DNA from: an uncultured Phycisphaerales bacterium
GTDB taxonomy: Bacteria; Planctomycetota; Phycisphaerae; Phycisphaerales; UBA1924
DNA length: 35,595 nucleotides
NCBI GenBank assembly: GCA_937879825.1
Contig: CALFMQ010000252.1
Location: forward strand, 1-35,595
Reading direction: 5' to 3'
Shown here: positions 1 to 20,629 of the stretch, piece after piece
Layout: each line of letters starts with the position of its first letter
How positions within the stretch are numbered: the stretch's first letter is position 1
Position numbers and translations under genes: made by a program
Notes under the pieces: generated by a model
What the model was told of the DNA's origin: nothing
Databases searched by the model: none
What the model saw: the letters and a program-made list of their open reading frames with translations, nothing else

Positions 1-28
1 GCCCGCGACTTCGCTGGCAACCCCCGCG

Positions 29-1036
29 GTGCCCGACGCTGGGGCCGAGGCTCCGGTCGGCGCTGCGACGGGCGGGCGTCCGGAAGCATCGGTCGGTGCG
101 GCTGCGGCCAAGATCGAGGTCAGGCGCGACGCGAACGGCAGGCGCGACGATCGGCGTGAGTTCTCCCTCGACGATCTGGCGGCCCGCGAGACGGCGCCGG
201 TGTCGGTGATCGTGCTCACATACAACGAGGAGGGGAACATCCGGGCGTGCCTGGAGTCGTGCGCGTGGTGCGATGATGTGCACGTTCTCGACTCGGGCTC
301 GAAGGATCGCACGCGCGAGATCGCCGAGGAGATGGGCGCGACGGTGCATGTGAACGCGTTCAGGAGTTTCGGTCAGCAGCGGAACTGGGCGATCGACAAC
401 ATTCCCGTTAAGTACAAGTGGCAGTTCCAGGTGGACGCGGACGAGCGGTTCACGCCCGCCTTGGTTCGGGAGATGGGGGCGCTGTTGCGGGCGGACGGAT
501 CGAGCGTGGACGGCGCGAGCGCGTACCAGTGCCCGTCGATGATGATGTTCATGGGGCGGTGGCTGCGTCATGCGGCGGAGTTCCCGGTGTACCAGTGCCG
601 GTTGTTGAATCCGGACTCGTGCCGCTTCGAGGATTACGGGCATGGTCAGCGGGAGGTAAACCGCGGCAAGACCGGCGTTCTGAGGATGCCGTACATGCAC
701 TACAACTTCTCGAAGGGTCTGGAGGAGTGGTTCGATAAGCACAACCGGTATTCATCGCTGGAGGCGAGCCAGGCGCTGGCCGAGCCGCCGATGCGGACGG
801 GGCGGGCGATCGCGACGATGTTCCGGGGGAACTCGGTGTCGCGCCGGCGGGCGCTCAAGGCGATCTCGTATCGGTTGCCCGCGAAGTCGCTCATCGTGTT
901 CTTCTGGACGATTGTGATTCGGCGCGGGTTCCTGGACGGTGTGGCGGGATGGAACTACGCGCGGATGCGTTCGATCTATGAGGGGATGATGTCGGTGAAG
1001 GTGTCGGTGCTCAAGCGGAAGGGCGAGTCGAAGTGA
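29..1036 (+). CDS. Family 2 (GT-A) glycosyltransferase
   Basis: Carries VSVIVLTYNEEGNIRACLES, VLDSGSKDRTREIAEE and a DAD (DxD) motif, typical of GT2. The frame stays open back to base 2, so the true start may lie upstream of the window. The stop overlaps the next start (GTGA at 1033-1036). Confidence 0.8.
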   Translation: MPDAGAEAPVGAATGGRPEASVGAAAAKIEVRRDANGRRDDRREFSLDDLAARETAPVSVIVLTYNEEGNIRACLESCAWCDDVHVLDSGSKDRTREIAEEMGATVHVNAFRSFGQQRNWAIDNIPVKYKWQFQVDADERFTPALVREMGALLRADGSSVDGASAYQCPSMMMFMGRWLRHAAEFPVYQCRLLNPDSCRFEDYGHGQREVNRGKTGVLRMPYMHYNFSKGLEEWFDKHNRYSSLEASQALAEPPMRTGRAIATMFRGNSVSRRRALKAISYRLPAKSLIVFFWTIVIRRGFLDGVAGWNYARMRSIYEGMMSVKVSVLKRKGESK

Positions 1037-1623
1037 GCGCACAAGACCATGGCCCGGGCTTTCCGTCTGACGAGGCGCTGTCTCGGGCGGAGAGTCCTTA
1101 CACGACCAAGGAGAAGGTTCTCCGGCTGCTGTGGAACTACTTCGGCCAGCCGATGATGCGGATGACCTTCCACAACTGGTACGGCGTGCGGGCGTGGTGG
1201 CTCCGGCGATTCGGGGCGACGATCGGGGCGCACTCGCGGATCCGGCCCAGTGTGCGCGTCGAGCAGCCGTGGAACCTGACTCTGGGGGACAACTGTTCGC
1301 TCGGGGATCGGGCGGTGATTTACTGCCTCGGGAAGATCACGATCGGCTCGAACTGCTCGATCTCGCAGCATGCGCACCTGTGCGCGGGGACGCACGACTT
1401 CACGCAGCCGAAGTTGCCGCTGCTCCGCCCGCCGATCGTGATTGAGGACGATGTGTGGATTGCGGCGGACGCCTTTGTGGGGCCGAATGTCCGGGTCGGT
1501 CGCGGGGCGTTGCTCGGGGCTCGCGGGGCGGCGTTCAAGGACCTGGAGGCGTGGACGATTTACGGGGGGAACCCGGCGAAGGCGATCCGTGCGAGGCCGC
1601 GATTTGCCGATGATCCTTCGTGA
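1033..1623 (+). CDS. Left-handed beta-helix (hexapeptide-repeat) O-acetyltransferase, WcaF-like
   Basis: The segment IRPSVRVEQPWNLTLGDNCSLGDRAVIYCLGKITIGSNCSISQHAHLCAGTHD...GNPAKAIRAR is near-colinear with E. coli colanic-acid acetyltransferase WcaF as I recall it. The GTG start overlaps the upstream stop. Confidence 0.8.
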   Translation: MSAQDHGPGFPSDEALSRAESPYTTKEKVLRLLWNYFGQPMMRMTFHNWYGVRAWWLRRFGATIGAHSRIRPSVRVEQPWNLTLGDNCSLGDRAVIYCLGKITIGSNCSISQHAHLCAGTHDFTQPKLPLLRPPIVIEDDVWIAADAFVGPNVRVGRGALLGARGAAFKDLEAWTIYGGNPAKAIRARPRFADDPS

Positions 1624-1641
1624 CGGGAGGATGCGGCGCGC

Positions 1642-2724
1642 ATGGCGGGTTCAGCGGTTGATCCGATTGTCTCCGTGGTGGTGCCGACGTTCCGGCGGCC
1701 TGAGATGCTGGTGCGCGCGGTTGAGTCGGTGCTGGGGCAAGACTTCCGGGGCATAGAGATCATCATCTGCGACGATGAGGATCCGCCGGGGGAGGGGCGC
1801 CTGGTCGCGGAACGGCTCGCGGCGCGGGACTCGCGGGTGCGCGTCGTGGCCAACGAGGGCGTGCGGGGGCAGGCGGGGAACCTGAACTATGCGATGTCGC
1901 TGGCGCGGGGGGCGTGGATCAAGCCGGTGTTCGATGACGATGCGCTGGAGCCGTCGTGCCTGGAGCGGATGCTCGCGGCGGCGGTGATGGGGCGCGGGTC
2001 TGTATCCGTGGTGCGGTGCCTGGCGAAGCGCTTCGAGGATGGACGGCTGGTCCGGACGGAGCGGCGCGGGCGCCGGGCGGTCGTGGAGCAGCTTTCGGCG
2101 GGGGACGCGGTGCTGGCGATGTACCTGCAGGATGTGGATGTGGGGATTCCGACGCAGCTGCTGGTGTCGCGGCACGCGGTGGAGGCGGGCGCGGTGATGG
2201 CGACGGACGGGCGGTTTGTCTCCAATGTCGACTCCGCGTGGACGCTCTCGCTGCTCGAGCACGGCTCGCTCGTTCTGCTCAATGAGCCGCTGGTGCATCA
2301 GCACCAGGGCGGGCACTCGACCGTGACCAGCGGGATGAGCGATGATGCGCTGGACGCTGAGTTTGCGTTGCTTCGCGAGTTGCAGCACGAGCGGCTCGGC
2401 GGGCGCACCCGCGTGCCGAGTGTGAGGACCGCGCAGGCGATGTTGCGCGGGATTCGGGCCCTTGAGCGGATGCGCCGTGGGCGTGCGCGCAGCGCGGTAT
2501 CGTTGGCGACGGATGTTCGGTCGGTTCGGGCGTGGGGATTGGCGGTTCGCTGGGCGATGCGTCGGGCGATGCCGGGATGGTTTGAGATTGTGAAGCGGAC
2601 GAGACTTTCTACGGATTCGAGGGCGTATGGCACTCAACGAGATCCCGGAATACGGATTCGAGCACAGCGGCCCGGCGCACACGATGGCGTATCTGACGCC
2701 GGCGATCGGCGCGCTGTTGGGTGA
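1642..2724 (+). CDS. Family 2 glycosyltransferase
   Basis: N-terminus VSVVVPTFRRPEMLVRAVESVLGQDFRGIEIIICDDED. ATG at 1642 with GGGAGG about 12 nt upstream. The last ~100 nt overlap the next ORF, so the exact 3' end is uncertain. Confidence 0.75.
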   Translation: MAGSAVDPIVSVVVPTFRRPEMLVRAVESVLGQDFRGIEIIICDDEDPPGEGRLVAERLAARDSRVRVVANEGVRGQAGNLNYAMSLARGAWIKPVFDDDALEPSCLERMLAAAVMGRGSVSVVRCLAKRFEDGRLVRTERRGRRAVVEQLSAGDAVLAMYLQDVDVGIPTQLLVSRHAVEAGAVMATDGRFVSNVDSAWTLSLLEHGSLVLLNEPLVHQHQGGHSTVTSGMSDDALDAEFALLRELQHERLGGRTRVPSVRTAQAMLRGIRALERMRRGRARSAVSLATDVRSVRAWGLAVRWAMRRAMPGWFEIVKRTRLSTDSRAYGTQRDPGIRIRAQRPGAHDGVSDAGDRRAVG

Positions 2725-3265
2725 TCGACTGGCGGAAGGCGTGCGTGTGCTCGATGTGGGGTGCGGGAACGGTTGGCTTGTCAACTGGTTCATCGGGCAC
2801 GGCGCTGTCGGTGTGGGGATCGATGCGTCGGAGCAGGGGATCGAGCAGGCGCGGAAGGCGTTCCCTAAAGGGCGGTTCGAGCGGCTGTTGGCGGATGATC
2901 GCGTGCTTGAGAACCTGGGAGAGGAGCCATTCGACATCGTGGTGTCGACGGAGGTTGTGGAGCATCTGTACGACCCGCGATCGTGGGCGCGGGGGTGCAT
3001 GGCGGCGGTGCGCGGGGGCGGACGGTTCGTGTGCACGACGCCGTATCACGGGTGGATGAAGAATGTGGCGGTGGCGGTGATGAACAAGTTTGATCACCAC
3101 ATGAACCCGTTGTGGGACGGGGGGCACATCAAGTTCTGGAGCCCGTCGACGCTCGGGACGCTGCTGCGTGAGGCGGGGTTCGTGGATGTCCGCTGGAAGG
3201 GTGCCGGTCGGTTGCCGCTGCTCTGGAAGAGCATGGTGATGAGCGGGGATCGCCCCGGATCGTGA
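2627..3265 (+). CDS. Class I SAM-dependent methyltransferase
   Basis: Motif I VLDVGCGNGWL and the downstream DIVVSTEVVEHL. The start could instead be the internal ATG at 2684. Confidence 0.75.
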   Translation: MALNEIPEYGFEHSGPAHTMAYLTPAIGALLGDRLAEGVRVLDVGCGNGWLVNWFIGHGAVGVGIDASEQGIEQARKAFPKGRFERLLADDRVLENLGEEPFDIVVSTEVVEHLYDPRSWARGCMAAVRGGGRFVCTTPYHGWMKNVAVAVMNKFDHHMNPLWDGGHIKFWSPSTLGTLLREAGFVDVRWKGAGRLPLLWKSMVMSGDRPGS

Positions 3266-3384
3266 GGGCGCGGTTTTATCGGGCGCGGGGTGCGGGATCG
3301 GCACGGGGACCCGGGGGGTTGGGGCCGCTACACTATCCGCCCCATTCACCCGCAACGAGACACCCGGTACCCGAGGAGAGAACG

Positions 3385-4554
3385 ATGTCCGGCCTGATTT
3401 CGCCGCACGGCGGCACGCTTGTGAATCGCGTAGTTGACAGCGCGACTGCTACGAAACTGAAGGGCGAGGCGGCTTCGCTCAAGCGGATCGACCTGAGCGC
3501 CAAGCAATCGTGCGATCTGGAGATGATCGGGATCGGCGCGTTCAGCCCCTTGACCGGGTTCATGGGCAAGGCGGACTTCGAGAGCGTGTGCAAGAGCATG
3601 AAGCTCGCGTCGGGCGACATCTGGCCGATTCCGATTCTGTTGTCGGTGGACTCTTCGAAGGCGCCGAAGGTCGGCGAGCGGGTGGCGCTGTATGCCCCGA
3701 ACGGGGTGCTGCAGGGCGTGATGACGGTGAAGGAGACCTTCGCGCACGACAAGAAGCTCGAGATTCCCAATGTGTTCGCGACGACCGATGAGGCGCACCC
3801 GGGCGTGGCGCAGGTGATGGCGGAGGGCGATACCTGCGTCGCCGGGCCGGTGGATGTGGTGACGGTTTGCGTGGACCCGAAGGGACCCGAGGCGTTCCTG
3901 GACTTCCGCCAGACGCCCGCGCAGACGCGGGCGGAGTTCGAGAAGCGCGGGTGGAAGACCGTGGGCGCTTTCCAGACGCGGAACCCGATTCACCGGGCGC
4001 ACGAGTATCTGTGCAAGTGCACGCAGGAGATCTGCGACGGGCTGCTGATTCACCCGCTGGTCGGCGAGACGAAGAAGGGTGATATCCCGGCGGCGACGCG
4101 GATGGACTGCTACCAGGTTCTGATCGAGAAGTACTTCGTGAAGGATCGGACGCATCTGTCGGTGATGCCGGCGGCGATGCGGTATGCGGGGCCCCGCGAG
4201 GCGATTCTGCACGCGCTGGTGCGGAAGAACTACGGGTGCACGCACTTCATTGTCGGGCGGGATCACGCGGGCGTGGGGAACTACTACGGGACGTACGACG
4301 CCCAGAACATCTTTGACGGGCTCGACGCGAAGAACCTGGGTATCAGGCCGCTCAAGTTCGAGCACGCGGCGTGGTGCAAGTTGTGCGAGGGCATGACTTC
4401 GTCGAAGACCTGCCCGCACGGCGGCGAGCACAAGATTTTCCTGTCGGGCACGAAGGTGCGTGAGATGCTCGCGGCGGGACAGCGTCCTCCGATGGAGTTC
4501 TCGCGGCCGGAGGTTGCGGACGCGCTGATGAGCTGGGCGAAGAGCCCCGCGTAA
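3385..4554 (+). CDS. sat: Sulfate adenylyltransferase (homomeric ATP sulfurylase, Sat type)
   Basis: Signature motifs QTRNPIHRAHE and GRDHAGVG are present. A C-terminal CKLC-x8-CPHGGEH cluster resembles the Zn site of Thermus-type ATP sulfurylases. ATG at 3385 is preceded by GAGGAGAG. The ORF-track extension from 3262 is an Arg/Gly-rich read-through that I discard. Confidence 0.92.
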   Translation: MSGLISPHGGTLVNRVVDSATATKLKGEAASLKRIDLSAKQSCDLEMIGIGAFSPLTGFMGKADFESVCKSMKLASGDIWPIPILLSVDSSKAPKVGERVALYAPNGVLQGVMTVKETFAHDKKLEIPNVFATTDEAHPGVAQVMAEGDTCVAGPVDVVTVCVDPKGPEAFLDFRQTPAQTRAEFEKRGWKTVGAFQTRNPIHRAHEYLCKCTQEICDGLLIHPLVGETKKGDIPAATRMDCYQVLIEKYFVKDRTHLSVMPAAMRYAGPREAILHALVRKNYGCTHFIVGRDHAGVGNYYGTYDAQNIFDGLDAKNLGIRPLKFEHAAWCKLCEGMTSSKTCPHGGEHKIFLSGTKVREMLAAGQRPPMEFSRPEVADALMSWAKSPA

Positions 4555-4563
4555 TCTGTGTCG

Positions 4564-5736
4564 ATGCGGATCTGTCATGTCATCGGGTCGATTGATCCGG
4601 CCAACGGCGGGCCCTCGACGGTCATCGGACGGATCGCATCGGCGCAAGCCGGGCTCGGCCTCGATGTTCATCTGCTCGGGGCGTGTTCCGCTGCTCGGGA
4701 AGCGGTGTCGCGTGAGGCGCTGGCGCAGGTGCCGGGCATCGAGCGTGTGACGCTGCACCTGATGACCGATCCGCCGTCGCGCATGCGACGGCTGCTTGCG
4801 AGCCACTTCGGTCCGGCGTTTGATGCGGTCCCCGAGCCCGACATTGCGCATCTCCATGGCGTCTGGGACTCGCCGCTGCTGCGGGTATCGGCGCGGTGTC
4901 GGGCGAGGAAGATCCCTTATCTGATTCGTCCGGCGGGGATGCTCGACTTCTGGTCGCTCAAGCAGAAGGCCCTGAAAAAGAAGGTTTCGATGGCGCTGTT
5001 CCATCGGAGGATGCTCCGCGGGGCGTCGGTCATTCATGCGCTGAATCCGCACGAACGAGATGCGGTATCGGCCCTGCGGCTTTGGACTCGGATCGAGATC
5101 ATCCCCAACGGCGTGTTCATGAGTGACATCGAGCGTGTCACGGAGGAAGGGCTGTTTCGGGGCAAGTTTCCGGCGCTGGGCGAGTCGCCGTTCGTATTGT
5201 TTCTGAGCCGCCTGCACTTCAAGAAGGGATTGGACATTCTGGCTGACGCGTGGACTCGGGTAGCGCGTGAGCATCCGGGGGCGAAACTGGTAGTGGCCGG
5301 CCCACGGGAGGACGACTCGATCGACGCGTTCGATCGTGTGATTGGGGACGCTGGGCTGACTGGCACGGTTGTTCAAACGGGCCCGGTGTACGGCGCGGAT
5401 AAGGCCGCGGCCTATCGGGAGTGTGCCTGCTTCGTGCTTCCGAGCCGGCAGGAGGGGTTCAGTCTGGCGATTACCGAGGCGTTGGGGTTCGGGGCGGCTG
5501 CGGTGGTGACGCGGGATTGCCACTTCCCTGAGATCACCGAGGTGGGTGCCGGGATCGAAACGGCCCTGGACGCGGGTGAGGTCGCTTCGGCGGTCTCTCG
5601 GATGCTGGTCGATCCGGCGTTCCGGACCTCGTGCGGGGCCGCGGGGGCGGCTCTGGTGCGGGAGCGATTCACATGGCCCGCGGTCGCCCGGAGGACGCTC
5701 GAGGTGTACCGTTCGATGGCCTCGGGGGCCCGTTGA
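4564..5736 (+). CDS. GT-B fold glycosyltransferase, family 4
   Basis: N-terminus MRICHVIGS..ANGGP and the E-x7-E region RQEGFSLAITEALGFG. The start could be GTG 4558. Confidence 0.8.
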   Translation: MRICHVIGSIDPANGGPSTVIGRIASAQAGLGLDVHLLGACSAAREAVSREALAQVPGIERVTLHLMTDPPSRMRRLLASHFGPAFDAVPEPDIAHLHGVWDSPLLRVSARCRARKIPYLIRPAGMLDFWSLKQKALKKKVSMALFHRRMLRGASVIHALNPHERDAVSALRLWTRIEIIPNGVFMSDIERVTEEGLFRGKFPALGESPFVLFLSRLHFKKGLDILADAWTRVAREHPGAKLVVAGPREDDSIDAFDRVIGDAGLTGTVVQTGPVYGADKAAAYRECACFVLPSRQEGFSLAITEALGFGAAAVVTRDCHFPEITEVGAGIETALDAGEVASAVSRMLVDPAFRTSCGAAGAALVRERFTWPAVARRTLEVYRSMASGAR

Positions 5737-5880
5737 GTTCCATCGAATGGGGCGATCCGGTTGGGGCGTCGAATCGTAGAAGGCGGGTCGAAGAGTTCGC
5801 CTGGGATTGCCGATAAGCAGGAGTCGGAGGGGTCGGGCCGCGTCAGGAGTTGGCGTGTTCTCGGACCTGGCACGGGTGTC

Positions 5881-7437
5881 ATGAAGCAGATCAAGTTCCT
5901 TGTCATCGCGTTCCTCGGATTCATCACCCTGCTGGTGGCGATGCTCATTTGGAGCGCGGAGGCGCGGGAGTTCTCGGCTTCGTTCTTCTTCATCGCGTTG
6001 GGCGCGTTGGTGCTCTTGCCGAGTGCGGCGGCGGTTCTGGCGGGGAAGATCCCGTGGTTCTCGCCGCACGCGTTCGTGGTGGCGGCGTTCGGGATGATGT
6101 ATGTGCTGGCCCCAGCGCTTGTGATTCTGGACGCTCCGGAGAGTGAGTATTACGGGCGGGCGCTGGCGCCGAGCGAGATGCTGAAGGTCGTGCAGGTGTG
6201 CACGCTCGGCGTGTTCTGCTACGTGCTGGGGTACCGGATCGGGCCCAAGAACTTTCGTGCGCCGCGTCGGCTCGAGGCGTACTTCTCTGACACCCCCGCG
6301 GTGGACCAGATCTATGTGCCGGGCGCGTTCCTGATCTGGGGGATCGGCGTCGGCGCGTGGGCGTACATCTACGGCGTGCAGGGCGGTATCTCTGCGGCTC
6401 TGTCGCGCATGGGTGAGCGATCCATGCTTCTGGCGGACGCGGGCGGCCTGGTCTTTCACCTGGCCAAGTTCCTGTACGTGGGGATGCTGCTGCTGATCGC
6501 GCGGATGGGGATGAACCTTGTCACGATCCCGATGCTGGGCTTCTCGACGCTGATCCTGCTGGCGTTCGGATCGCGGTCATACATCGGTCTGCTGGTGCTG
6601 GGCGCGCTGATTGTTTGGCGGTTCCGGTACCTGCAGAAGGTGCCGCTGATCGTGTGGGCGGGCGGCGCTGTGGGCGGGTTCTTCCTGATGGCGTTCTACG
6701 TTCTGCTCCGCGCGACGCGCGGCAATCTCGGCGAAGCGGCGTATTACTTCCAGAACTCGATGGAGCGGACGAGCTCGTGGCTCACGCCGATCGTCGCGCC
6801 GTTCACCTTCATCAACGAGATGGGCGAGGTGGTGAACAATGTCGGGGGGCGGATTCCGTATCAGTACGGCGAGACCTTCCTGACCTTGCTCTACTTCGTC
6901 CCGGGGTGGATCTGGTCGGGGAAATACAATCTGGACTCGGTGAACTCGGCGTATATGAATGCGCTGTATCCGGGGCGGATCGAGAATGTGACGATTACGC
7001 CTTCGATCATGGCGGAGTTCTTCATGAACTTCGGTTGGTTCGGGATCGTGTTCTGCCCGCTGCTTCTGGGTATCGGGATGAAGTGGTTCACGAACGCGAT
7101 GATCGGGCATCCGAACCGGAAGTATCAGTGCGCGTGGATCGTCTTTGCAGCGCTCGCGTCAGTGAATGTGATGCGTGTGCTGAAGAACGGCTCGACGGAC
7201 GCGGTGTGGCTGCTGTACTTCCTGGTGCCGCTGGCGGCGTTGTACCTGCCGAACATCGGTCTGTTCTTTTCGCCGCCTCCGCGCGGGACGCTCGTCACGG
7301 ATGAGGATCCGTACGAGGCTGCGGCGCGTGAGGCGGGCGAAGAATGGGACGCCGACGAGGGCTACGAGGAGCACGAGGGCGACGCGTACGACTGGTACAC
7401 GGAGCCGGACGGGGCGGTGGCGTCGTCGCGCGGTTGA
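5881..7437 (+). CDS. Wzy-like oligosaccharide repeat-unit (O-antigen) polymerase, polytopic membrane protein
   Basis: About 12 hydrophobic segments and a position in a GT/flippase locus. Acidic C-terminal tail (DEDPYEAAAREAGEEWDADEGYEEHEGDAYDWY). The start is taken at MKQIKF (ATG 5881); the track ORF opens at 5761. Confidence 0.6.
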   Translation: MKQIKFLVIAFLGFITLLVAMLIWSAEAREFSASFFFIALGALVLLPSAAAVLAGKIPWFSPHAFVVAAFGMMYVLAPALVILDAPESEYYGRALAPSEMLKVVQVCTLGVFCYVLGYRIGPKNFRAPRRLEAYFSDTPAVDQIYVPGAFLIWGIGVGAWAYIYGVQGGISAALSRMGERSMLLADAGGLVFHLAKFLYVGMLLLIARMGMNLVTIPMLGFSTLILLAFGSRSYIGLLVLGALIVWRFRYLQKVPLIVWAGGAVGGFFLMAFYVLLRATRGNLGEAAYYFQNSMERTSSWLTPIVAPFTFINEMGEVVNNVGGRIPYQYGETFLTLLYFVPGWIWSGKYNLDSVNSAYMNALYPGRIENVTITPSIMAEFFMNFGWFGIVFCPLLLGIGMKWFTNAMIGHPNRKYQCAWIVFAALASVNVMRVLKNGSTDAVWLLYFLVPLAALYLPNIGLFFSPPPRGTLVTDEDPYEAAAREAGEEWDADEGYEEHEGDAYDWYTEPDGAVASSRG

Positions 7438-7449
7438 GGCGGGTTGGCG

Positions 7450-8799
7450 TCAGCGCCGGGAGCGGATGAAGCGGAAGCGGAAGTCGCTCGGCCGGGGGAT
7501 GACGAGGTCCCACCACTTGATTCCGGTGATTCTGGAATAGACGGCGACCAGGCCGATGGTGCCGGCGATGTAGGTGACGGTGCTGGCCCATGCTGCGCCG
7601 AGGACACCGTTGGCCGGCGCCCACGAGACGAAGCCCTGCGGCACCCAGATGGCGTTGAGGACGATGTTGGCAACGACGACCGGGCCCATGACCGCTGAGA
7701 CCAGGAGCGGGTGGCCCTTGGCGTGGAGGTCTGCTTCGAGCGTGCGCGCGACGAAGAAGGCGACGATTCCGGGGAGGAGGATCTGGGTGCAGGTGGCTGC
7801 GAGTCGGAACCCGGGGCCGTAGACGAGCGGGAGGATCCACGGCGCGGCGAAGTATGTGACGATCGCGGCGGGGAGTCCGACGGCGAGGCCGAAGCGGGAG
7901 AGGCGCGCGGTTTTGTGCGCGAATGCCGCCCGATCTGAGGTGTTGACGCCTCGCGAGAAGACGGCCCAGGAGAGTGCTATGGGGATCTGCCAGAGCATGT
8001 TGGCGAAGTTGACGCCGACGGAGTAGTTGCCGAGGTGGGCGTCGGCGATGTGCATGACGGTGAGTGAGAGGATGAAGAGATCGATGCGGTAGTTGAGGCG
8101 CATGAGGACGGTTGAGATGCCGAACTTGAAGGCCTTGGCGATCATCTCTTTGGCGAGGGTCGCGTCGAAGTCGAAGCGGATGGTGTAGCGGGAGCGGATG
8201 AGCTGGATGCCGATGGCGAATGAGATGAGCGAGCCGACGAGCATGGCAAGGAAGTAGACCCAGCCGTCGGAGGGGCCGTCGAAACCGAGGAGCGCGCCGA
8301 GTGTGAGGATGATGATGAGCTTGGGTGGTTCGGCCCAGACGAGGCGCGGGACATAGGTGGAGATGCGCTGGTCTGCGAGGGCGACGCCCCGCGCGATTGC
8401 GAGGTGGAGACTCGGGCCGATTCCGACGACCGAGAGGGCATACCACGAGAGGGGGAGGTCGCCCGACCACGGCGCGAAGAACCACGCGACGGCGAGGAGT
8501 GTGTAGAGGATGGAGGCGATGAGCCAGAGCGTGAAGGAGACGCCGATGATTCGGTTCTTCTCATCGGGTCGGGCGGCCATCATGGTGGGGAGCGCCTTGT
8601 CGATGCCGAAGTCGCCGAAGAGCACGAGGAGCGACGGCACGATGAGGACGGCGGTGATGACGCCTCGGACGTCTTCTTTCCAGATGCGCGCGGTGGCGAT
8701 TCCCACGAGCAGCGCGAGGGCGAGGAGCCCGAAGTTGCCGAGGATGAGCCGGAGGGCGTCTTCGAGGAAGGATCGATTCTTGGGCGCTGGACTGGTCAC
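7450..8799 (-). CDS. MOP-superfamily polysaccharide flippase (Wzx-like)
   Basis: 449 aa with 12 or more TM segments and the typical size and composition of Wzx/PST proteins. GTG start overlaps the upstream stop (GTGA). Convergent with the polymerase gene, 12 bp apart. Confidence 0.7.
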   Translation of the reverse strand: MTSPAPKNRSFLEDALRLILGNFGLLALALLVGIATARIWKEDVRGVITAVLIVPSLLVLFGDFGIDKALPTMMAARPDEKNRIIGVSFTLWLIASILYTLLAVAWFFAPWSGDLPLSWYALSVVGIGPSLHLAIARGVALADQRISTYVPRLVWAEPPKLIIILTLGALLGFDGPSDGWVYFLAMLVGSLISFAIGIQLIRSRYTIRFDFDATLAKEMIAKAFKFGISTVLMRLNYRIDLFILSLTVMHIADAHLGNYSVGVNFANMLWQIPIALSWAVFSRGVNTSDRAAFAHKTARLSRFGLAVGLPAAIVTYFAAPWILPLVYGPGFRLAATCTQILLPGIVAFFVARTLEADLHAKGHPLLVSAVMGPVVVANIVLNAIWVPQGFVSWAPANGVLGAAWASTVTYIAGTIGLVAVYSRITGIKWWDLVIPRPSDFRFRFIRSRR

Positions 8800-9806
8800 A
8801 CGAGCCGTTCTTGCGGGAGCAGGTCGATCTGGAAGAGCTGGTATCCGTGGTGCTCGCCGATCTGTTTGTGGTGGATCATCTTGCGCTGGGCGAGGTCATA
8901 GAGAGCCATGTGGGAGCGGGGTTGCCAGTGGCCGTGCTTGATCCAGTAGCCGAACTCCTTCCACTTAGAGCGGCGCAGCGCGGAGAAGCAGACGAAGTAC
9001 TGATCGGGATTCTGCGGGTGACGGACGACGCCCCGGCACCAGCCGAGCTGGTTCAGTTCGGGGGTCATCTCGGGGAGGTTGTAGATGGAGCGCCGGGAGG
9101 TGTCGTCGACATCGAACATGACGAGGTGGTTGTTTGTCGTTGTGAAGACGAGTTTGTCGCCCATGACGATGCCGTCGTGCGGCATGCCGGCGGCCATCTC
9201 GATTCGGCGTCCCGGCTTGGTGACACAGACGGCGTCCATGGTGCGGAGCTGGCTCGTCCAGAGTTCGCCTTCGAGTTCGAAGAGGTGATTGCCGTGGCGG
9301 AGGTGGGGCTTGGTATCGGGGATGAGGCGGTAGTCCTTGCGGTCATCGATTTTGCGCGCACCGGGCTCGTCCTTGAGCAGGTCGTATCGCTCGAGGAGTT
9401 CGCCGGTGAGCGAGACGATGTCGACGGTCTCCAGCCCGGTGTTGGAGACGGCGAGGTTGCCCTTCCACGGGAAACAGTGGTGGAGGTCGTTGAAGCCTTT
9501 GAGACTAATCTTGCGGGCGGGCGCCACGGGGGGCCACTGGTCGTAGACGAGTATCTCGTTGTGCGTGCAGACGTAATAGGAGCCGTCGATGAAGCAGGAG
9601 CCCGTGAACTGGATTTTCTGTCCCGGGGAGACGACATCCTTCGGGGGCAGGTACTCGCAGCGGTGGAGGATTTCGTTTGTCTGGGCGTCGATGATGAGGA
9701 TGACGGCCAGGACGCCCTGATCGCCGTCTTCACCCTGCACCGCGCCGCTGATGAGTATCTGCATCCCGCCTCCTACGCCCGCACAACTTCCGTGTTCGAT
9801 CGGCAT
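8796..9806 (-). CDS. Hypothetical soluble beta-strand-rich protein (possible beta-propeller); family not assigned
   Basis: Strong GC3 bias and normal composition. Repeated short hydrophobic strand/turn units and His-rich patches (NDLHHCFPW, HLRHGNH, GMPHDG, KHGHWQPRSH). An alternative start at ATG 9764 has an AGGAGG 4 nt upstream. The gene is translationally coupled to the flippase. Confidence 0.6.
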   Translation of the reverse strand: MPIEHGSCAGVGGGMQILISGAVQGEDGDQGVLAVILIIDAQTNEILHRCEYLPPKDVVSPGQKIQFTGSCFIDGSYYVCTHNEILVYDQWPPVAPARKISLKGFNDLHHCFPWKGNLAVSNTGLETVDIVSLTGELLERYDLLKDEPGARKIDDRKDYRLIPDTKPHLRHGNHLFELEGELWTSQLRTMDAVCVTKPGRRIEMAAGMPHDGIVMGDKLVFTTTNNHLVMFDVDDTSRRSIYNLPEMTPELNQLGWCRGVVRHPQNPDQYFVCFSALRRSKWKEFGYWIKHGHWQPRSHMALYDLAQRKMIHHKQIGEHHGYQLFQIDLLPQERLV

Positions 9807-9850
9807 TTCTCGCCTTTGGGGGCCATTCTAGGGTGTCCTACGTGCGGCGC

Positions 9851-10912
9851 TCAGCGGCGCTGCTCGGGCATGACGAGGTCCACAACGACGGGCGCATGGT
9901 CGGAGCCGGTATCGGCCTCGACGACCTGCCACGAGGCGACCTTGATGCCGGGCGTGACGAAGACATCGTCGATGGCGAAACGCTTCCAACGCGGGTTGTC
10001 GGCGGGCCAGGTGCCGACGACTCCCAAGAGCGGCTTGCATCGGAGCAGGCCCAGTGCGCGGCGGACCCGGCCGGTGCGATACATGGTGGGCGAGGCGTTG
10101 AGATCGGCGGTGACGATCATGGGGAGGCGGCGCGAGAGGTAGTAGTCGCGGAGGATCTGGATGTTGGTCTCGAGCAGATCGTTGCCGAACTCCCAGCGCT
10201 TGGCGGTGCGCGGTGATGAGGGGATGAGCATGGCGTGGAGGAAGTCGCCCCCCATCGCCTCGGGGGCGTGGACCGTGACCACTCGGCGGTAGTTGTAGAA
10301 GTCCCACCAGAGGTCCCACTTGGAGTCGCGGGACTCATCGACGGTGATCGGGAACCTGCTCAGGACGACGATGTTCCACTCCTTGCCATCCTCGGGCACG
10401 ACGCGGTGCGGGTAGCGCTCGTCGTCCCACGACGCCTGGCGGAGTTCGTGGAGCGTCGACCACGAGGCCTCGAGGATGCACACGAGGTCGGCGTCTGACT
10501 GCCTGATGGCGGCGACGACCTTGTCGCCGTGGGTGTTGATCCCGAGCGAGTTGAACGTCATCACGCGGAGTGTTCGGCCTTCGATCGGCGCGGAGCGCAC
10601 GGCCCGGCCCGAAGCCATCCAGAGTAAGTGCGCTAATGCGATCAGCGCGATCAGTAGCGCAGTGCGACGAGACCGGAGTGCGAGGGCGAAAATGGCTGCG
10701 AGAGCGCAACCGACAACCATCGGGCCGGCGAAGCCGGACAGGAGATCGAGGCGCCATGAGAGCGCGAGGCCCGCGCCGAGGAAACGGAGGAGCAGGGTTG
10801 TGAACGAAGTGATGAGGAGGATCAGCGCGAGAGCGAGGCGGACCCGATGCCATCGCCTGCGCCTGCGCCTGCGCGGATCGGTGGCGGTTGTGACCGCTGC
10901 GCGCCCGGTCAT
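9851..10912 (-). CDS. Membrane-anchored endonuclease/exonuclease/phosphatase (EEP) family protein
   Basis: Three to four N-terminal TM helices, then LRVMTFNSLG..., ADLVCILE and a C-terminal GSDHAPVVVDL (EEP catalytic His motif). The ATG at 10912 forms an ATGA overlap with the epimerase stop. Confidence 0.75.
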   Translation of the reverse strand: MTGRAAVTTATDPRRRRRRRWHRVRLALALILLITSFTTLLLRFLGAGLALSWRLDLLSGFAGPMVVGCALAAIFALALRSRRTALLIALIALAHLLWMASGRAVRSAPIEGRTLRVMTFNSLGINTHGDKVVAAIRQSDADLVCILEASWSTLHELRQASWDDERYPHRVVPEDGKEWNIVVLSRFPITVDESRDSKWDLWWDFYNYRRVVTVHAPEAMGGDFLHAMLIPSSPRTAKRWEFGNDLLETNIQILRDYYLSRRLPMIVTADLNASPTMYRTGRVRRALGLLRCKPLLGVVGTWPADNPRWKRFAIDDVFVTPGIKVASWQVVEADTGSDHAPVVVDLVMPEQRR

Positions 10913-11895
10913 CCGGCGAGATGCTCGCGGGCCCATTTCCATTGCCGGCGGACGCCTTCCTCGAATGACGTTGTCGGTTTGTACCCGAGTTCGGCCGTGG
11001 AACGGGTCAGGTCGGCGTAGGTTCGTGAGACATCGCCGGCCTGCATCTCGCGTTGCTCAACTCTTGGCTCTTTGCCCAGCACGCGCCCGATGGTGGCGAT
11101 CATCTCCTTGAGGTTGACGGGGTCGTTGCCGCCCAAGTTCCAGATGCGGTAGCCGTGGTCCGGGACTCTCTCGTAGGAGGCGACGACTCCGGCGACGATA
11201 TCGTCGATGTATGTGTAGTCGCGGCTGGTGGTGCCGTCGCCGAACATGGGGATGGTTTGATCGCGTCGGATGATTTCGATGAACTTGGCGATTGCGAGGT
11301 CGGGGCGTTGGCGCGGGCCGAAGACGGTGAAGAAGCGGAGACAGGCGATCTCCATGTCGTAGAGATGGTGGAAGACATGGCCCATGAGTTCGCAGGCGCG
11401 CTTGCTTGCGGCGTAGGGCGAGATGGGGCTGGAGACATCGTCGGTCTCCGCGAAGGGGACCTTCTCGTTGTTGCCGTAGACGGAACTGGAGGATGCCATG
11501 ATGAAGCGCTTGACATTGGCGCGGCGTGCGGCCTCCATAAGGATGGTGGTGCCTTCGAGATTGACCTGCGCGTAGCGCTTGGGTTGCTCGAGACTGGGTC
11601 GGACGCCCGCGCGGGCTGCGAGATGGATGACGCCTGTGAGTTGTTCGTCGGAGAAGAGTTGATTCATCGCGGTTGCGTCGCAGATGTCGGCTTCGACGAA
11701 TGCGAACCGATCGTCGGCGCCGGGGGTCTTGCGGATCTCGGCGAGGGTTCGTTCCTTGAACGGGCGGGGGTAGTAGGCGTCGAAATCGTCGAGCCCGATG
11801 ACGGTGGTGCCGCGGGCGAGGAGGGCCTGGCAGGTGTGCGAGGCGATAAAGCCGGCGGCTCCGGTGACAAGGACTCTGTGTCTGGACCAATCCAC
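10909..11895 (-). CDS. NAD-dependent sugar-nucleotide epimerase (SDR), UDP-glucuronate 4-epimerase-like
   Basis: Rossmann motif VLVTGAAGFIASH, catalytic YAASK, and LRFFTVFGPRQRPDLA resembling GlcA-epimerase clade proteins. GTG at 11895 has AGGGAGG 7-8 nt upstream. The longer track ORF (to 12072) is rejected. Confidence 0.85.
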   Translation of the reverse strand: MDWSRHRVLVTGAAGFIASHTCQALLARGTTVIGLDDFDAYYPRPFKERTLAEIRKTPGADDRFAFVEADICDATAMNQLFSDEQLTGVIHLAARAGVRPSLEQPKRYAQVNLEGTTILMEAARRANVKRFIMASSSSVYGNNEKVPFAETDDVSSPISPYAASKRACELMGHVFHHLYDMEIACLRFFTVFGPRQRPDLAIAKFIEIIRRDQTIPMFGDGTTSRDYTYIDDIVAGVVASYERVPDHGYRIWNLGGNDPVNLKEMIATIGRVLGKEPRVEQREMQAGDVSRTYADLTRSTAELGYKPTTSFEEGVRRQWKWAREHLAG

Positions 11896-12063
11896 CCGTG
11901 TCGCCTCCCTCGCGGTGTCGTGTACCCGTACCCAACAAACGAACCGGTGCGTGGGCGGGTTCGCCCTTCGGTGCGGCCGGCGGATCGAAGGTCGCGGATT
12001 GTAATGGGGTCGTTGCGCGAGGCCTGGAACGGGCGAGCGGTGCCCATTCCCCATCAGGAGTGA

Positions 12064-12111
12064 CGCTGACAAAAAGCAAACCAGGGCGCCGTCTATTCAA
12101 CAGCGCCCCGG
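12064..12111 (-). terminator. Intrinsic terminator closing the sigma-to-SLC13 transcription unit
   Basis: The minus strand reads CCGGGGCGC-(13 nt loop)-GCGCCCTGG. This is a 9-bp stem including one G-U pair, followed by TTTGCTTTTTG. Confidence 0.65.
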
Positions 12112-12259
12112 TGGAGGAGAGAGAGATCTATTGGATATTACTCCTTATCGGCGGATTCCGTTCCGATATCTTGAGCGAAATCAAGCGGAAAGTGAACAAT
12201 AACCGACCACTCGCAATGCAAAGACCGGTGCGCGACCGAGCCCCCCATGCGCGGGTTGG

Positions 12260-12295
12260 GTCCGCGCAAGTTATGTCGTACAAACTTGCGCGGAC
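12260..12295 (-). repeat. Perfect 13-bp inverted repeat (stem-loop) in the 3' UTR of the SLC13 gene
   Basis: GTCCGCGCAAGTT (12260-12272) and AACTTGCGCGGAC (12283-12295) with a 10-nt loop, about 26 nt after the stop codon. No U-tract follows on either strand. Confidence 0.6.
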
Positions 12296-12321
12296 GCGCA
12301 AAAATGCCCTTTGTAGGCGGC

Positions 12322-14163
12322 TTATATCCACTTGAGAGCGGTTGCTATCACGGCTGTGACGCCGCACACAAGGGTGAGCGGCCCGCCAAATCGGGTGTAG
12401 TCGAGCCAGCGGTACCCTCCGGGGCCCATGACCGTGAGGTTGGTTTGATAGCCGATTGGGGTCGAGAACTCGGCAGAGGCTCCGATCGCGATAACCACCG
12501 CTAGCGGCGTGAAGTCGGTGAAGCCGACGGATGCTGCGGTCGAGACCGCGATCGGGAACACCAGCGCAGCGGCGGCGGTATTGGAGAGCAGCATGGTGAA
12601 GGCGACAGTCATTGCATAAACCACGGCGAGCACGGCGACCTTGCCCATGGACCCGGCGACAGAGACCACGAACTGCGCGATCTCCGGCGCCAGCCCGGTG
12701 GTGAGCATGGCTCGGCCGATCGCGAATGCGCACCCGACAACGATGAGGACGGTCCAGTCCATGCTTGCGCGGACCTGTGGGCCGGTGCAGCATCGTGTGA
12801 TGATCATGGCGCAAGCGGCGGACATGGCGGCGGGCAGCAGGTCCATCAAGCCAGAAGCCACAGCGACGACCATGAGCAGGAGTATGGCGATGGCGATCCA
12901 GGCGCGATCGTGGCGGGGCACGGCGGCACCTTCGAGGGCGCTGACGAGGTGAAAATCACTCGAGTCGCGGTGACGGGATGCGAACCGCTCATTTGTTTCA
13001 AGAAGGAGTGTGTCACCCGGGCGGAGTTCGATATCGCCGAGTCTGCCGATGATCGCGTGGCCCTGACGGTGAACAGCGACAACGACTGCGCCGTACCGCG
13101 ACCGGATCTCTGCATCGCGGATGGTGCGTCCGATGAGTGGTGATGCCCCGGATATGACTGCCTCAACGAGTCGGAGATTGGCTCGGGAGGCCCCCGGACC
13201 GACGCCGTCCGCCACGGGCGTGAGCCCCTTCATGCGTGCCAGGTCAACGACAGACGAGAGCACCCCGACAAAAACGAGAACGTCGCCGGCGAGAATCTGC
13301 TCATTCGGGCTCGGCGCAAGGATGGTTCTGTCCTCGCGGTCGATTCGTGAGAGAAAGACGCCCGTGAGGTGGCGCAATCCCGCGGCATCAATGGTCTTCC
13401 CCACGACGGGCGACGCTGACTCGACACGGAGCGCTGTCATGTATTGTCGCGAGCGTTCGAGGTCGCCGGATTGGTCCGTGCGCTGAGGCAGCAGCGTGCG
13501 CCCGAAGATCATCATGTATGCGAGACCCGCGATAGCAACGGGAATACCGACCCATGCGAGCGTGAACATGCCCAATGGTTCGATGAAATGGCCGTTGGAT
13601 CCGCGTGCCAAGGCGTCGTTGTGTTGTTGAATCAGTCCGGCGACCGCGAGGTTTGTGCTGGTCCCGATCAGTGTGCAGAGCCCGCCGAGAATCGCTGCGA
13701 AACTCAGCGGCATGAAAAGATATGAAGGCGAGATGCGCATTCGTTTCGAGAGCGAACTGACGACCGGCATGAAACTGGCGACCAATGTTGTGTTGTTTGT
13801 GAATGCGGAGATCGCTGCGACCGGGATGGAGAGTCGGGCCTGGGCGCTTGTGATCGACCTGGGCGTTCCCAGTATTCGATCCGCCAGGAACGATACGGCC
13901 CCGGTTTCGCGCATCCCGGTTGAGATCACATAGAGCATCGCGATCGAGGCGAGCGCCTCATTGGCGAAGCCGGCGAGGGTCTCGGCGGGTGTAAGAATCC
14001 CCAACACTGTCAGGGCAGTGAGAACGCCGAGCATGACGAGATCAATCCCGATGCGACCCCACGCCAGGACTCCGAACATGATGATCAAGAGCACACTCAG
14101 CGCCCACGGATGCCACCACGCGGTTGCACCGACCAAGAGAACGGCGTGATCGATGTTGCACAT
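12322..14163 (-). CDS. SLC13/DASS-family anion permease with two central TrkA-C (RCK-C) domains; likely sulfate uptake from context
   Basis: 613 aa with polytopic N- and C-terminal halves. Two RCK-C-like inserts (PVVGKTIDAAGLRHLTGVFLSRIDRED..., PLIGRTIRDAEIRSRYGAVVVAVHRQG...). The substrate is inferred only from the adjacency to cysQ and cysC. Confidence 0.75.
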   Translation of the reverse strand: MCNIDHAVLLVGATAWWHPWALSVLLIIMFGVLAWGRIGIDLVMLGVLTALTVLGILTPAETLAGFANEALASIAMLYVISTGMRETGAVSFLADRILGTPRSITSAQARLSIPVAAISAFTNNTTLVASFMPVVSSLSKRMRISPSYLFMPLSFAAILGGLCTLIGTSTNLAVAGLIQQHNDALARGSNGHFIEPLGMFTLAWVGIPVAIAGLAYMMIFGRTLLPQRTDQSGDLERSRQYMTALRVESASPVVGKTIDAAGLRHLTGVFLSRIDREDRTILAPSPNEQILAGDVLVFVGVLSSVVDLARMKGLTPVADGVGPGASRANLRLVEAVISGASPLIGRTIRDAEIRSRYGAVVVAVHRQGHAIIGRLGDIELRPGDTLLLETNERFASRHRDSSDFHLVSALEGAAVPRHDRAWIAIAILLLMVVAVASGLMDLLPAAMSAACAMIITRCCTGPQVRASMDWTVLIVVGCAFAIGRAMLTTGLAPEIAQFVVSVAGSMGKVAVLAVVYAMTVAFTMLLSNTAAAALVFPIAVSTAASVGFTDFTPLAVVIAIGASAEFSTPIGYQTNLTVMGPGGYRWLDYTRFGGPLTLVCGVTAVIATALKWI

Positions 14164-14243
14164 AGTCGGTAGCGACGGGCGCGCGTCTTGTAGGTCGCGC
14201 GGCAGATGCGGGGGCGAGCCGCCATTTTACCTTGGCGATCGGC

Positions 14244-15269
14244 TCAGACCAGTCCGAGGCGCTTGATGGCACCGATGGCCTTGCCGTGGAGGATTGTGGG
14301 CGCGACGACGATTCCCCGGTTCTTCTCGAGACCGATTCCATGGGAGAAATCGAGGGATTTGCCCGAGGCATCGGTGACGGCGCACCCGGCCTCGATGGCT
14401 ACGAGGGAGCCGGCGGCGTGGTCCCAGATTCGTTCCACGTAGCCCTTCTTTGTTGGGAGGCGGAGGTAAAGATCGGCCTGACCTCGGGCGACGACCGCGT
14501 ACTTGGCCTGGCTGTCGAGGCGTGCCGGCTCGCCCGGTTCGCCGAGTTGCTCGAGGACGCGCTCGGAGTCGTTGTGGCTCGTGTGTGCGGCTTCGACGGA
14601 CTCGCACATGCGGACGGGTTCGTCTTCTGAAACCTCGAGCCGCTTGAGTTTGGAACCGGCGGTCTTGAAGTCGTCGGCGCGCGACTCCCACACGCCGTCG
14701 CCCGCGATGGCGGAATACATGGTGCCGTGGGCTTCGAGTTCGTCGAACCCGCGGTTGAAATCGGCGGAGAGATTCGGGCATCCGAGGACACCGATGATGG
14801 GCGAGCCGTTCTCGATCCATGCGAGGGAGACGGCGTACTGCTGGCCTCGGAGGAAGCCCTTGGTGCCGTCGATCGGGTCGAGCGTCCAGAAGGCATGGAG
14901 ATGATCGCGCTTGGGATCGGCATTGCCGAGGTCGATCATGTCGAGGACTTCGTCGGGCGCCGCGTTGTGCCAGACCGTTCGGACGGCGGAGACGACGGCG
15001 TCGAGGAGCGCGGTGTCGCCCGAGCCGACTCGGGCGCGGAGTTCGTTGGCGTCTTCTTCGGCGACGAGTTTGATCGAGCCGAGTTGCTCTGCGAGGGCGC
15101 GGGCGATGACGGCCTGGCTCGCGAAGTCCGCGACGGTGACGGGAGAGCGGTCGTCCTTGAGGGTCTTCTGAACGGTGGCGAGATCGTGTTGCACCTTGCG
15201 GCAGACATGGCACGCCTCGGCGACCGCGAAGCGTGCGGCGTTGAGCATTCTGGCTTCACTGGACATCAC
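14244..15269 (-). CDS. cysQ: 3'(2'),5'-bisphosphate nucleotidase (CysQ/HAL2-type, inositol monophosphatase superfamily)
   Basis: Motifs WTLDPIDGTKGF and WDHAAG, with a long HAL2-like architecture (341 aa). GGAGGAGG lies 5 nt upstream of the ATG. Confidence 0.85.
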   Translation of the reverse strand: MMSSEARMLNAARFAVAEACHVCRKVQHDLATVQKTLKDDRSPVTVADFASQAVIARALAEQLGSIKLVAEEDANELRARVGSGDTALLDAVVSAVRTVWHNAAPDEVLDMIDLGNADPKRDHLHAFWTLDPIDGTKGFLRGQQYAVSLAWIENGSPIIGVLGCPNLSADFNRGFDELEAHGTMYSAIAGDGVWESRADDFKTAGSKLKRLEVSEDEPVRMCESVEAAHTSHNDSERVLEQLGEPGEPARLDSQAKYAVVARGQADLYLRLPTKKGYVERIWDHAAGSLVAIEAGCAVTDASGKSLDFSHGIGLEKNRGIVVAPTILHGKAIGAIKRLGLV

Positions 15270-15344
15270 GACCTCCTCCGATGCTGCGCTCTTGCAGGTC
15301 GGTTGAGTGTAGTGGCTCGGATGGAGGCGGGAGTCGGCGCTCGA

Positions 15345-15959
15345 TTACGCCTTCTTGATGACGCCCTTGTCTTCGAGGAACGCGACGCAGCGGCGGACGG
15401 CCTCGGCGACATCGTAGTCCGCGGGCTTGAGCACCAGTTCGGGCTTGCCGGGCGCTTCGTAGGGATCGTCGATGCCCGTGAAGCCCTTGATCTGCCCGGC
15501 GCGGGCTTTCTTGTAGAGGCCCTTGGGGTCGCGCTGCTCGCACACCTCGATGGGCGTATCGACGAAGATCTCATAGAACGCGAGTTTGCCCGCGTCGTGG
15601 GTGGCTCGGGCCTTGTCGCGGTCGGCGCGATAGGGCGAGATGAAGGACGTGAGGGTGACGCATCCGGCGTCGGCGAAGAGTTTGGCGACTTCGCCGATGC
15701 GGCGGATGTTCTCGGCGCGGTCGTCGGCGGAGAACCCCAGGTTGTTGTTGAGGCCGTGGCGGACGTTGTCGCCGTCGAGGCGGTAGCAGTTGACCTTGCG
15801 GTTCACGAGCGCCTGCTCGAGGGCGCAGGCGATGGTGGACTTGCCCGAGGCGCTGAGGCCGGTGAACCAGAGCGTGCAGCCCTTGCACCCGAGGGCGCCC
15901 CAGCGCTCGTCGCGGGTGATATCGCCGTCGTGCCAGTGGATGTTGGTTGCCTTGCTCAT
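15345..15959 (-). CDS. cysC: Adenylylsulfate (APS) kinase
   Basis: P-loop GLSASGKST, then [12 protein letters not shown] and SFISPYR. The start is at [10 protein letters not shown] (ATG 15959); the track extension to 16082 is rejected. Confidence 0.92.
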
Positions 15960-16092
15960 CGGTGTGGGCCTTTCTCTCGCTCGCTCCGTGGGGATCCCGC
16001 GGGCGCCGGACACATGGCGCGGGGATCGTGGATGGTGGGTCGGGGGGGAGGAAAGGTAGGCGGGTGCCGCGAACGGAGTCAAACCGCCCGGT

Positions 16093-18576
16093 TTACCAGG
16101 TGCGGAGTGACTGGAGCGCGTCGACGATGCTTTCGGTATCGACCACTGAACGGGTGATCAGGCGGCGGTCGACCTCGTCCTGCGACTCGGGGTCGAGGTC
16201 GATCCAGAGAATCCCCGCGATGGCGGGGTCGACCTTTTCGGCGAGCCAATCGGCGAGTTCGGCCCGGGCGTCGGTGTCGGCGGCGTGGCGGAGGCCGATG
16301 ATGGTCTTGGCCCGGGCGACGAGGTCTGCGTCTTCGGTGACGCCCATGTTCTCATCGGCGAGCGCGTGCATGACGAAGTTGAGGTAGGCGTCGGCGTCGT
16401 GGCGGGCTGCGAGATCGTTGATGACCAGAAGCAGCCGGGATGGTTCGTCGAAGCGGGCGCGGACCTCGAAGGGTGTGGTGTTATTGAGTTCGATCTGATC
16501 GTGGGTGTAGGCGATATCCAGGATGTCGTGATCGGCGGAGGTGCGCGTGTAACGTTCGGGGAAGGGGAAGTCATTGATGTCGGAGAACATCGTGGCGACG
16601 CCGGCCGCGGTGTCGTAATGGAGCGCGGGACCGGCAACCACGTCGGACATCTCGTGCGTTCCGGCGATGCGGGAGTCGTGCTTCATCGCGGGGATGAGCA
16701 GGCCGCCGCCGATACCGACGACGCACATGAGCATGAGCACAACCGCGACAACAACGCCCGCGTTGGGCGCGTTGTTGAACTGTCCGCCTCGCGGTGTGCG
16801 GCCCCGGCGCCGGTCCTGCGCGCGGCGCTGGGCGGCCTGGACGCGGGCGCGCGCAGACTTGAGTTGCGCACCGGCGTTGGGGCGGTTGTGGCGCGGCGTG
16901 ACGGGCGTCCGGCGGGCGGTTGCATCGGGTTTCGGGGTGTCGCGTCTTTCGGGGCGCTCATAAGACGCTCCGATGACCAGCGGACCGATACGAGCCCCGT
17001 ACGTGCGGGGTTTACCCGGCGCATCCTGCGGCGATGGGGACCGTTGCTCCGACTCGCTCTTGACGGAGTATCGCCCAGTCCACCAGTCTGCGAGGGCGAT
17101 GACGGGCTTGGTGCGGGGCTTGGGCGAGTCGTGCGCTGCGGGCGTCTCTGGGGCCGGCGCAGCGGGAGCTACGGGCGCGGCGGCCTGCGCGACGCGGCCC
17201 ATGTGTTCGGCGAACTCGTCTGCGACGGGCGCGGGGACGGTGAACTCGGAGCCGCCCTTGACCGAGGGGAGATCGGCGGGCTTGAGGGCGAACGCGCTGG
17301 GCGCGTGCTGGATGGCGCGGAGATCGGCGAGCATCTCGGCGGCGCTCTTGTAGCGCGTGTTGATGTCGGTCATTGCGCGGCGGACGACCCAGCGGAGCGC
17401 TTCGGGGCAGCGCTTGGAGAGTTGCGAGAGCCCGCCGTGGGCGGGGAATGAGTTCTCGATGACGGAATAGAGCACGGCGCCGGCGCCGTAAATATCGAAC
17501 TTGACGCCGTCGACCTCGTGGACTTTGACGCCGCGGAGCGCGAGCCGGACCATTTCGGGATCGCGGAAGTATTCGGTGCCGTGGGTCGTGAGGGTCATCG
17601 CGGAGCGGAGGGGCGTGATGAGGCCGAAGTCCACGAGTTCGGCGCGACCGTCGTGGACGATGATGTTGTCGGGTTTGACATCCTTGTGCCAGAGACCGCC
17701 GCGGTGGTAGACATCGAGGGTGGAGACGAGGTCGGCGATGTATCCGATCGCCTCTCGGAGGTGACGGTCGTCGAGGCCGGCGGTCTCGGCGTCGGAGTGC
17801 ATGCGGCGGGTGACGAGCGTGAGGGACTCGCCGGGCACATAGGGCATGACGTAAAAGAATCGTTCGTTGGTGAGTTCGTGATCGAGGACGAGCCCGAGTT
17901 TGCGCGCGGCTTCGAGCGCGCGGCTCTCGCGGACGATCTGCGGGACGGTCGATCCCTCGCGGACGGAGAAGGACTTGATGACGACCTGATCGATCTGGCG
18001 GTTCGATGAGCGTTCGAGTGCGGCGCGCTTGATGTCTGTGGGTTCGGCGACGTAGAGGCGGCCGCCCGAGCCGCCGCCGGGGAGCGAGCCGACGATCGTG
18101 TAGCCGTCGAACTGGCCGGTCTTCCTGGAGGGGCGGTCGGCGCCGGGGGCCTGCGCGACGGCGTCGGGCACGCGGTGCTCGATCTCGTCCATCATCGGGC
18201 CGAGCAGGAGGAAGCGCGCGGGGTGTCCGATGCAGACGCGGTAGAGGGCTTTGCCCGAGGCGCCCCACGCCGAGACGAGCTCGCGCCCGAAGTGCGTGGC
18301 GCTGGACCAGCGCCCGATGAGCGTGTTGGCGACGGCGGCGGGGATGAAGAAGAGGCCGGCGATGAAGAGGCCGACCATGCGGAGGGAGTCGGTGAGCATG
18401 CCCGCGATGAAGCGGTAGAAGTGCCTGATGACCGCGCCGATCCCCCGGAAGACCCACCCGATGCCGACGGCGGTGCCCTTCATCGCGGGCACGACGAGAT
18501 AGATGATCGCCAGGATGCCCACGACAATGGCGAGGACGGAGGCGAGGATAATGAGAAGGATTGCGGGTGCGGCCAT
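16093..18576 (-). CDS. Membrane Ser/Thr protein kinase (Hanks type, non-RD) with N-terminal TM helices, a late TM helix and a C-terminal domain of unknown function
   Basis: Gly-rich loop [19 protein letters not shown] Lys, catalytic loop [12 protein letters not shown], and [14 protein letters not shown] lies 9 nt upstream of the ATG. Confidence 0.88.
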
Positions 18577-18608
18577 GGGGGTCTACCTCCACCGTGAGGG
18601 GGTGGGCC

Positions 18609-20558: not shown

Positions 20559-20629
20559 TCGTTGATTGATCGACAACACGCACGCATCGTCGGGAAACCA
20601 TTCTCCGGGGACTCGACGAGGCACCATCC

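Follow-up and report, generated by a model that had tools for sequence, protein, structure and literature searches.

The window analysed here, a DNA stretch of 35,595 nucleotides, is the entire 35.6-kb contig C252 of a metagenome-assembled genome (MAG) of an uncultured Phycisphaerales bacterium (G000; 2.70 Mb, 84% complete), whose close relatives carry the name Phycisphaeraceae. A conspecific near-complete genome (G001), with 95% DNA identity to the MAG, carries the locus on a 2.87-Mb contig. Gene families were assigned by Pfam and NCBIfam matches, and the locus comprises the following genes:

2-1036, plus strand, GT2 glycosyltransferase (Pfam)
1033-1623, plus strand, hexapeptide O-acyltransferase (Pfam)
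1642-2724, plus strand, second GT2 (Pfam)
2627-3265, plus strand, SAM methyltransferase (Pfam)
3262/3385-4554, plus strand, sat, homo-oligomeric ATP sulfurylase with PUA_2 and ATP-sulfurylase domains (Pfam/NCBIfam, 3e-98)
4558-5736, plus strand, GT4 glycosyltransferase (Pfam/NCBIfam)
5761-7437, plus strand, Wzy-type polymerase (Pfam/NCBIfam)
7450-8799, minus strand, Wzx-like flippase, Polysacc_synt_3/MatE, with a GTG start (Pfam)
8796-9764, minus strand, P1, a 322-aa cytoplasmic six-bladed beta-propeller of the DUF4915/TIGR03032 superfamily (hhalign, AF2)
9851-10942, minus strand, membrane-anchored EEP (YafD-like) phosphoesterase (Pfam)
10909-12072, minus strand, SDR nucleotide-sugar epimerase/dehydratase (Pfam/NCBIfam)
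12322-14163, minus strand, SLC13/DASS-like permease (CitMHS and two TrkA_C domains), presumed sulfate importer (Pfam/NCBIfam)
14244-15269, minus strand, HAL2-type 3'(2'),5'-bisphosphate nucleotidase, a PAP phosphatase (298 bits, cut-off 267)
15345-16082, minus strand, cysC, APS kinase (Pfam/NCBIfam)

The plus-strand operon runs in the order GT2, hexapeptide acyltransferase, GT2, methyltransferase, Sat, GT4 and Wzy, and converges with a minus-strand operon encoding an ECF sigma factor, a Ser/Thr kinase, CysC, HAL2, the permease, the SDR epimerase, EEP, P1 and Wzx. The genes sat, cysC and HAL2 are each present once in the MAG, and the EEP gene lies upstream of P1 across Phycisphaerae loci. Every gene named in an initial annotation made from the DNA alone (sat, cysC, the HAL2-type phosphatase, the SLC13-like permease and the Wzx/Wzy locus) was upheld by Pfam and NCBIfam, whereas its placement of cysC, HAL2 and the permease beyond the epimerase/flippase operon needs revision: these three genes are co-directional and tightly spaced with those for the epimerase, EEP, propeller and flippase, and appear to make up the front of that operon.

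Several features of the surrounding DNA may be recorded here. The Ser/Thr kinase gene, 11 nt before cysC, and the ECF sigma factor gene (16093-19373) point the same way as the PAPS genes, a layout that is kept in three other loci (L012, L013 and L015). The permease region (12314-14264), in which local GC is lower (0.62), is replaced by ~60 bp in G001; an SLC13-like permease is also missing from L013, while L015 has one, 40% identical, in the same position, and contig C161 of the MAG carries a paralogue (42%). In L013 the open frame of Sat reaches further at its N-terminal end; considered as a possible domain, this extra stretch was rejected as out-of-frame noise. Elsewhere in the window, two FabF-like ketoacyl synthase genes (23701-27173) flank a PD-(D/E)XK_3 nuclease-family gene (25164-25796), an 851-aa ORF (28969-31524, minus strand) and three ORFs of 235-406 aa (19425-22298, minus strand) are without a Pfam match, and a tRNA-Leu with anticodon TAG (35058-35140) is the sole RNA gene detected.

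PAPS had been proposed to be made here for sulfation rather than for cysteine, with a check for cysH elsewhere in the genome as a test. The PAPS_reduct (cysH/cysD) and NIR_SIR families have no match in either the 84%-complete MAG or G001, and this absence of PAPS reductase and sulfite reductase from both genomes agrees with the proposal and argues that PAPS serves as sulfuryl donor only. Judged by gene content, the organism makes its PAPS only for sulfation and has no sulfate reduction pathway. The co-occurrence of PAPS and sulfotransferase genes in capsule loci is a stated hallmark of sulfated polysaccharides, and the locus is a real sulfation-dedicated PAPS module inside a polysaccharide locus, a kind of system that is already known (PMC11641403). 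Both PAPS genes and glycan assembly genes are present, and the only in-locus sulfotransferase is a candidate, P1.

In six-frame whole-genome family searches, Sulfotransfer_1, _2, _3 and _5 gave no match on C252, and sulfotransferase HMMs built in this analysis found nothing in the window, in line with the initial annotation, which had seen no recognisable sulfotransferase there. It had left two options, an enzyme encoded outside the window or a new type among the unassigned proteins within it. Each holds in part: the former is backed by at least 15 sulfotransferases in G000 and 19 in G001, and the latter by a credible candidate, the propeller at 8796-9764; the idea of a missing enzyme needs revision, since the genome has at least 15 canonical sulfotransferases on other contigs. 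Specifically, 15 Sulfotransfer_3/1 matches and one Sulfotransfer_5 match were found in G000, all away from C252. Pfam scans of eight sulfotransferase proteins showed five of them to be TPR+Sulfotransfer_3 fusions, and most remaining matches lie in open frames of ~490-590 aa, consistent with the same fused form; stand-alone enzymes are encoded by three genes on C102 and one Sulfotransfer_5 gene on C295. The TPR+Sulfotransfer_3 fusion genes are numerous and stand in tandem, with as many as six in one array (G000 contigs C355, C341, C18, C34, C197, C212 and C372; G001:C1:2171-2182 kb). No homologues of the window's GT, Wzx and Wzy genes were found on the sulfotransferase contigs of the MAG, and in G001 the closest of the 19 matches is 176 kb away from the locus. 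In G001, the genome in which the DNA preceding base 1 could be inspected, no sulfotransferase is encoded in the first 20 kb upstream; there the sugar locus goes on with genes for a GT4, epimerases, a GDP-mannose dehydratase, an MBOAT protein and a UDP-glucose dehydrogenase. Since sat and cysC are single-copy, they would also supply all the distant sulfotransferases. Our literature search returned no work on sulfotransferases of Phycisphaerae.

P1 starts with an ATG at position 9764, preceded at 6 nt by AGGAGG, and its stop codon overlaps the GTG start of wzx as GTGA, an arrangement indicating translational coupling. The AF2 model of the protein is a six-bladed propeller (pLDDT 91.8). The family includes at least 386 close homologues of P1 and forms 811 clusters when grouped at 50% identity. 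Among 148 diverse members, H109, N173, H210-D211-G212 and R258 are invariant, and in the model these residues each begin an inner strand in successive blades. P1 is homologous to DUF4915 (PF16261; hhalign 97%, E 7e-11), with which it has H, HxN, PH and RG motifs in common, and its Atlas neighbours carry the name TIGR03032; PF16261 is matched weakly by 10 of 39 P1 relatives, and P1 alone falls below the threshold of the Pfam model. No literature on DUF4915/TIGR03032 was found.

A relationship to the aryl-sulfate sulfotransferases (AssT) was indicated by profile-profile comparison of P1 with planctomycete AssT homologues (P 9e-4 over the whole propeller) and, with larger alignments, by hhalign (P 1.3e-4, probability 53%, 305 columns), while reversed or shuffled control alignments gave P 0.04-0.96. 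P1 H109/H110 align with AssT His252, H171-x-N173 with His356/Asn358 and R188 with Arg374, the AssT positions having been checked against 3ELQ numbering; R188 is variable, 27 of 39 sequences having Arg there. H210, the histidine of the MPH motif, matches the catalytic His436 only transitively, via DUF4915; a direct hhalign pairing of the two was not obtained, and when a local alignment of the P1 PHDG segment with the AssT HQH segment was forced, the histidines stayed unpaired. In a VIA fold comparison, P1 and AssT (3ELQ/3ETS) aligned with Z 22.4 over 291 of 322 residues, the longest alignment listed, and P1 and Cpz4 with Z 20.3; however, generic YWTD/NHL propellers scored as high or higher, and since unrelated YWTD propellers reach Z 23.7, fold alone does not decide AssT kinship. 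A Foldseek search of the P1 model yielded generic propellers only, P1 profiles found no meaningful match among PDB sequences in HMM-to-sequence searches, and the AssT families PF05935 and PF14269 gave no Pfam match for P1 at E<=10 and none in the genome at E<=1. Taken at this strength, alignment and model suggest that P1 is distantly related to the aryl-sulfate sulfotransferases through a weak link. To our knowledge, AssT enzymes do not use PAPS.

The genomic context of P1 was surveyed at 80 genome loci, with flank statistics on the 57 that have at least 8 kb on both sides. Sat/CysC, CysQ or a sulfotransferase is encoded within ~10 kb of P1 at 46 of the 57 fully flanked loci, and Sat/CysC near it at 32. 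The recurrent core order in Acidobacteriota is SatCysC-TauE-CysQ-P1-Wzx, in which non-orthologous parts (a fused Sat/CysC, a CysQ-type phosphatase and TauE) fill the same jobs as in the window, whereas in Actinomycetota the order is Wzx-sulfotransferase-P1-GT4, with a canonical sulfotransferase adjoining P1. The syntenic Phycisphaerales locus L015 combines the layout of the window with a Sulfotransfer_1 gene adjoining sat. P1 is also found fused, as P1+Wzy_C and Acetyltransf_6+P1. DUF4915 proteins proper are homologous to P1 and carry the same motifs, yet they are mostly encoded away from sulfation genes; a single open frame of 1225 aa (L106:9359-13033, minus strand) encodes an Asp/Asn beta-hydroxylase-like domain together with Sulfotransfer_3 and DUF4915. 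Additionally, the gene immediately upstream of SatCysC or P1 is often one for a 4'-phosphopantetheinyl transferase, as at L039:250-1098 and in 10 further loci of Acidobacteriota. The 4'-phosphopantetheinyl transferase reaction likewise releases PAP, the CysQ substrate. Among 20 genomes with a PAPS-P1 locus without a nearby sulfotransferase, 19 carry canonical sulfotransferases elsewhere, in two cases apparently on the contig of P1, ~18-25 kb off by coordinates; the one genome with P1 and PAPS genes in which no canonical sulfotransferase was found is itself a fragmented MAG. P1 is therefore found alongside canonical enzymes rather than in their place, and it may be a second component of sulfation.

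Family membership and gene order suggest the following pathway, in which the family assignments themselves are direct matches. The permease would import sulfate, which Sat would convert to APS and CysC to PAPS; a sulfuryl group would then be placed on the lipid-linked repeat unit, with P1 as the in-locus candidate for this step, the by-product PAP would be cleared by the HAL2 enzyme, and the repeat unit would be flipped by Wzx and polymerised by Wzy. P1 may act via a sulfo-histidine intermediate on H210, drawing its sulfate from PAPS directly or from a carrier loaded by a canonical sulfotransferase encoded elsewhere. Cpz4 transfers sulfate to the hydroxyl of a sugar as part of a relay that has two steps and draws on PAPS (see also PMC13426309); by analogy, P1 and canonical enzymes may form a relay like that of Cpz8/Cpz4. 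We give an even chance to the reading that the locus makes a Wzx/Wzy-dependent acylated, methylated heteropolysaccharide that is sulfated cytoplasmically, with P1 as candidate sulfuryl transferase. P1 is the best in-cluster candidate for sulfate attachment, and the new element is likely this literature-free AssT-like propeller as an additional or alternative sulfuryl-transfer component. The broader proposal, that P1/DUF4915-superfamily propellers are a new carbohydrate sulfuryl-transfer class of AssT-fold descent in bacterial polysaccharide sulfation, working through a sulfo-histidine intermediate and fed directly or indirectly by PAPS, is more tentative, and we place it a little short of an even chance.

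P1 could instead be a different component of sulfated-glycan assembly, for instance a protein that helps the flippase in recognition or gating, or another tailoring enzyme, with a stand-alone canonical sulfotransferase (C102, C295) sulfating the polymer. Its translational coupling to Wzx, its fusion to Wzy and GNAT domains rather than PAPS enzymes, its weak similarity to AssT and the canonical sulfotransferases carried by most P1 genomes would all fit such a role, which we nevertheless regard as rather unlikely: the seven invariant polar residues that the alignment and model place at inner-strand starts appear to point to catalysis, the closest canonical sulfotransferase in G001 is 176 kb from the locus, and no GT, Wzx or Wzy homologues were seen on the sulfotransferase contigs. 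A more distant alternative is that the polymer is unsulfated and the PAPS genes are a single housekeeping supply for the 15-19 distant, mostly TPR-fused sulfotransferases, their position in the locus being historical. Single-copy sat and cysC beside many sulfotransferases elsewhere accord with this, as do a permease dispensable in G001 and an in-locus sulfotransferase kept in the relative L015 and missing from the window lineage. However, sat is set between the methyltransferase and GT4 within the glycosyltransferase operon, cysC and HAL2 head the flippase operon, and the P1-PAPS association recurs in independent phyla, so that we consider a historical position improbable.

Little is known of bacterial polysaccharide sulfotransferases, which are sought for making sulfated glycans. 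If cytoplasmic sulfation by P1 is correct, the widespread P1 family would offer a second way of sulfating glycans that can be put to the test, and the presence of P1 would mark loci for sulfated polysaccharides in Planctomycetota, Acidobacteriota and Actinomycetota.

Compared with known systems, P1 shares with AssT (3ELQ) and Cpz4 (9KF6) a six-bladed propeller and, in the alignments, His, His-x-Asn, Arg and His motifs in the same order, the last His being matched only through DUF4915, but differs from them in its length of ~320 aa, its cytoplasmic location and its lack of both an N-terminal sandwich domain and a Pfam Arylsulfotrans match. At the level of the gene cluster, polysaccharide assembly and sulfate-activation genes also occur together in Vibrio sp. 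KMM 8419 (PMC11641403), Cobetia marina KMM 1449 (PMC11766843) and the synechan xss cluster (PMC8205485), all of which, unlike the window, have canonical PAPS sulfotransferases, accompanied in the Vibrio cluster by cysDN. The sulfated product of these three clusters is assembled before export, and the window locus, known here from its genes, is likened to them; in place of a canonical sulfotransferase, it combines a Sat-type sulfurylase and a HAL2-type phosphatase with a propeller of the DUF4915 superfamily.
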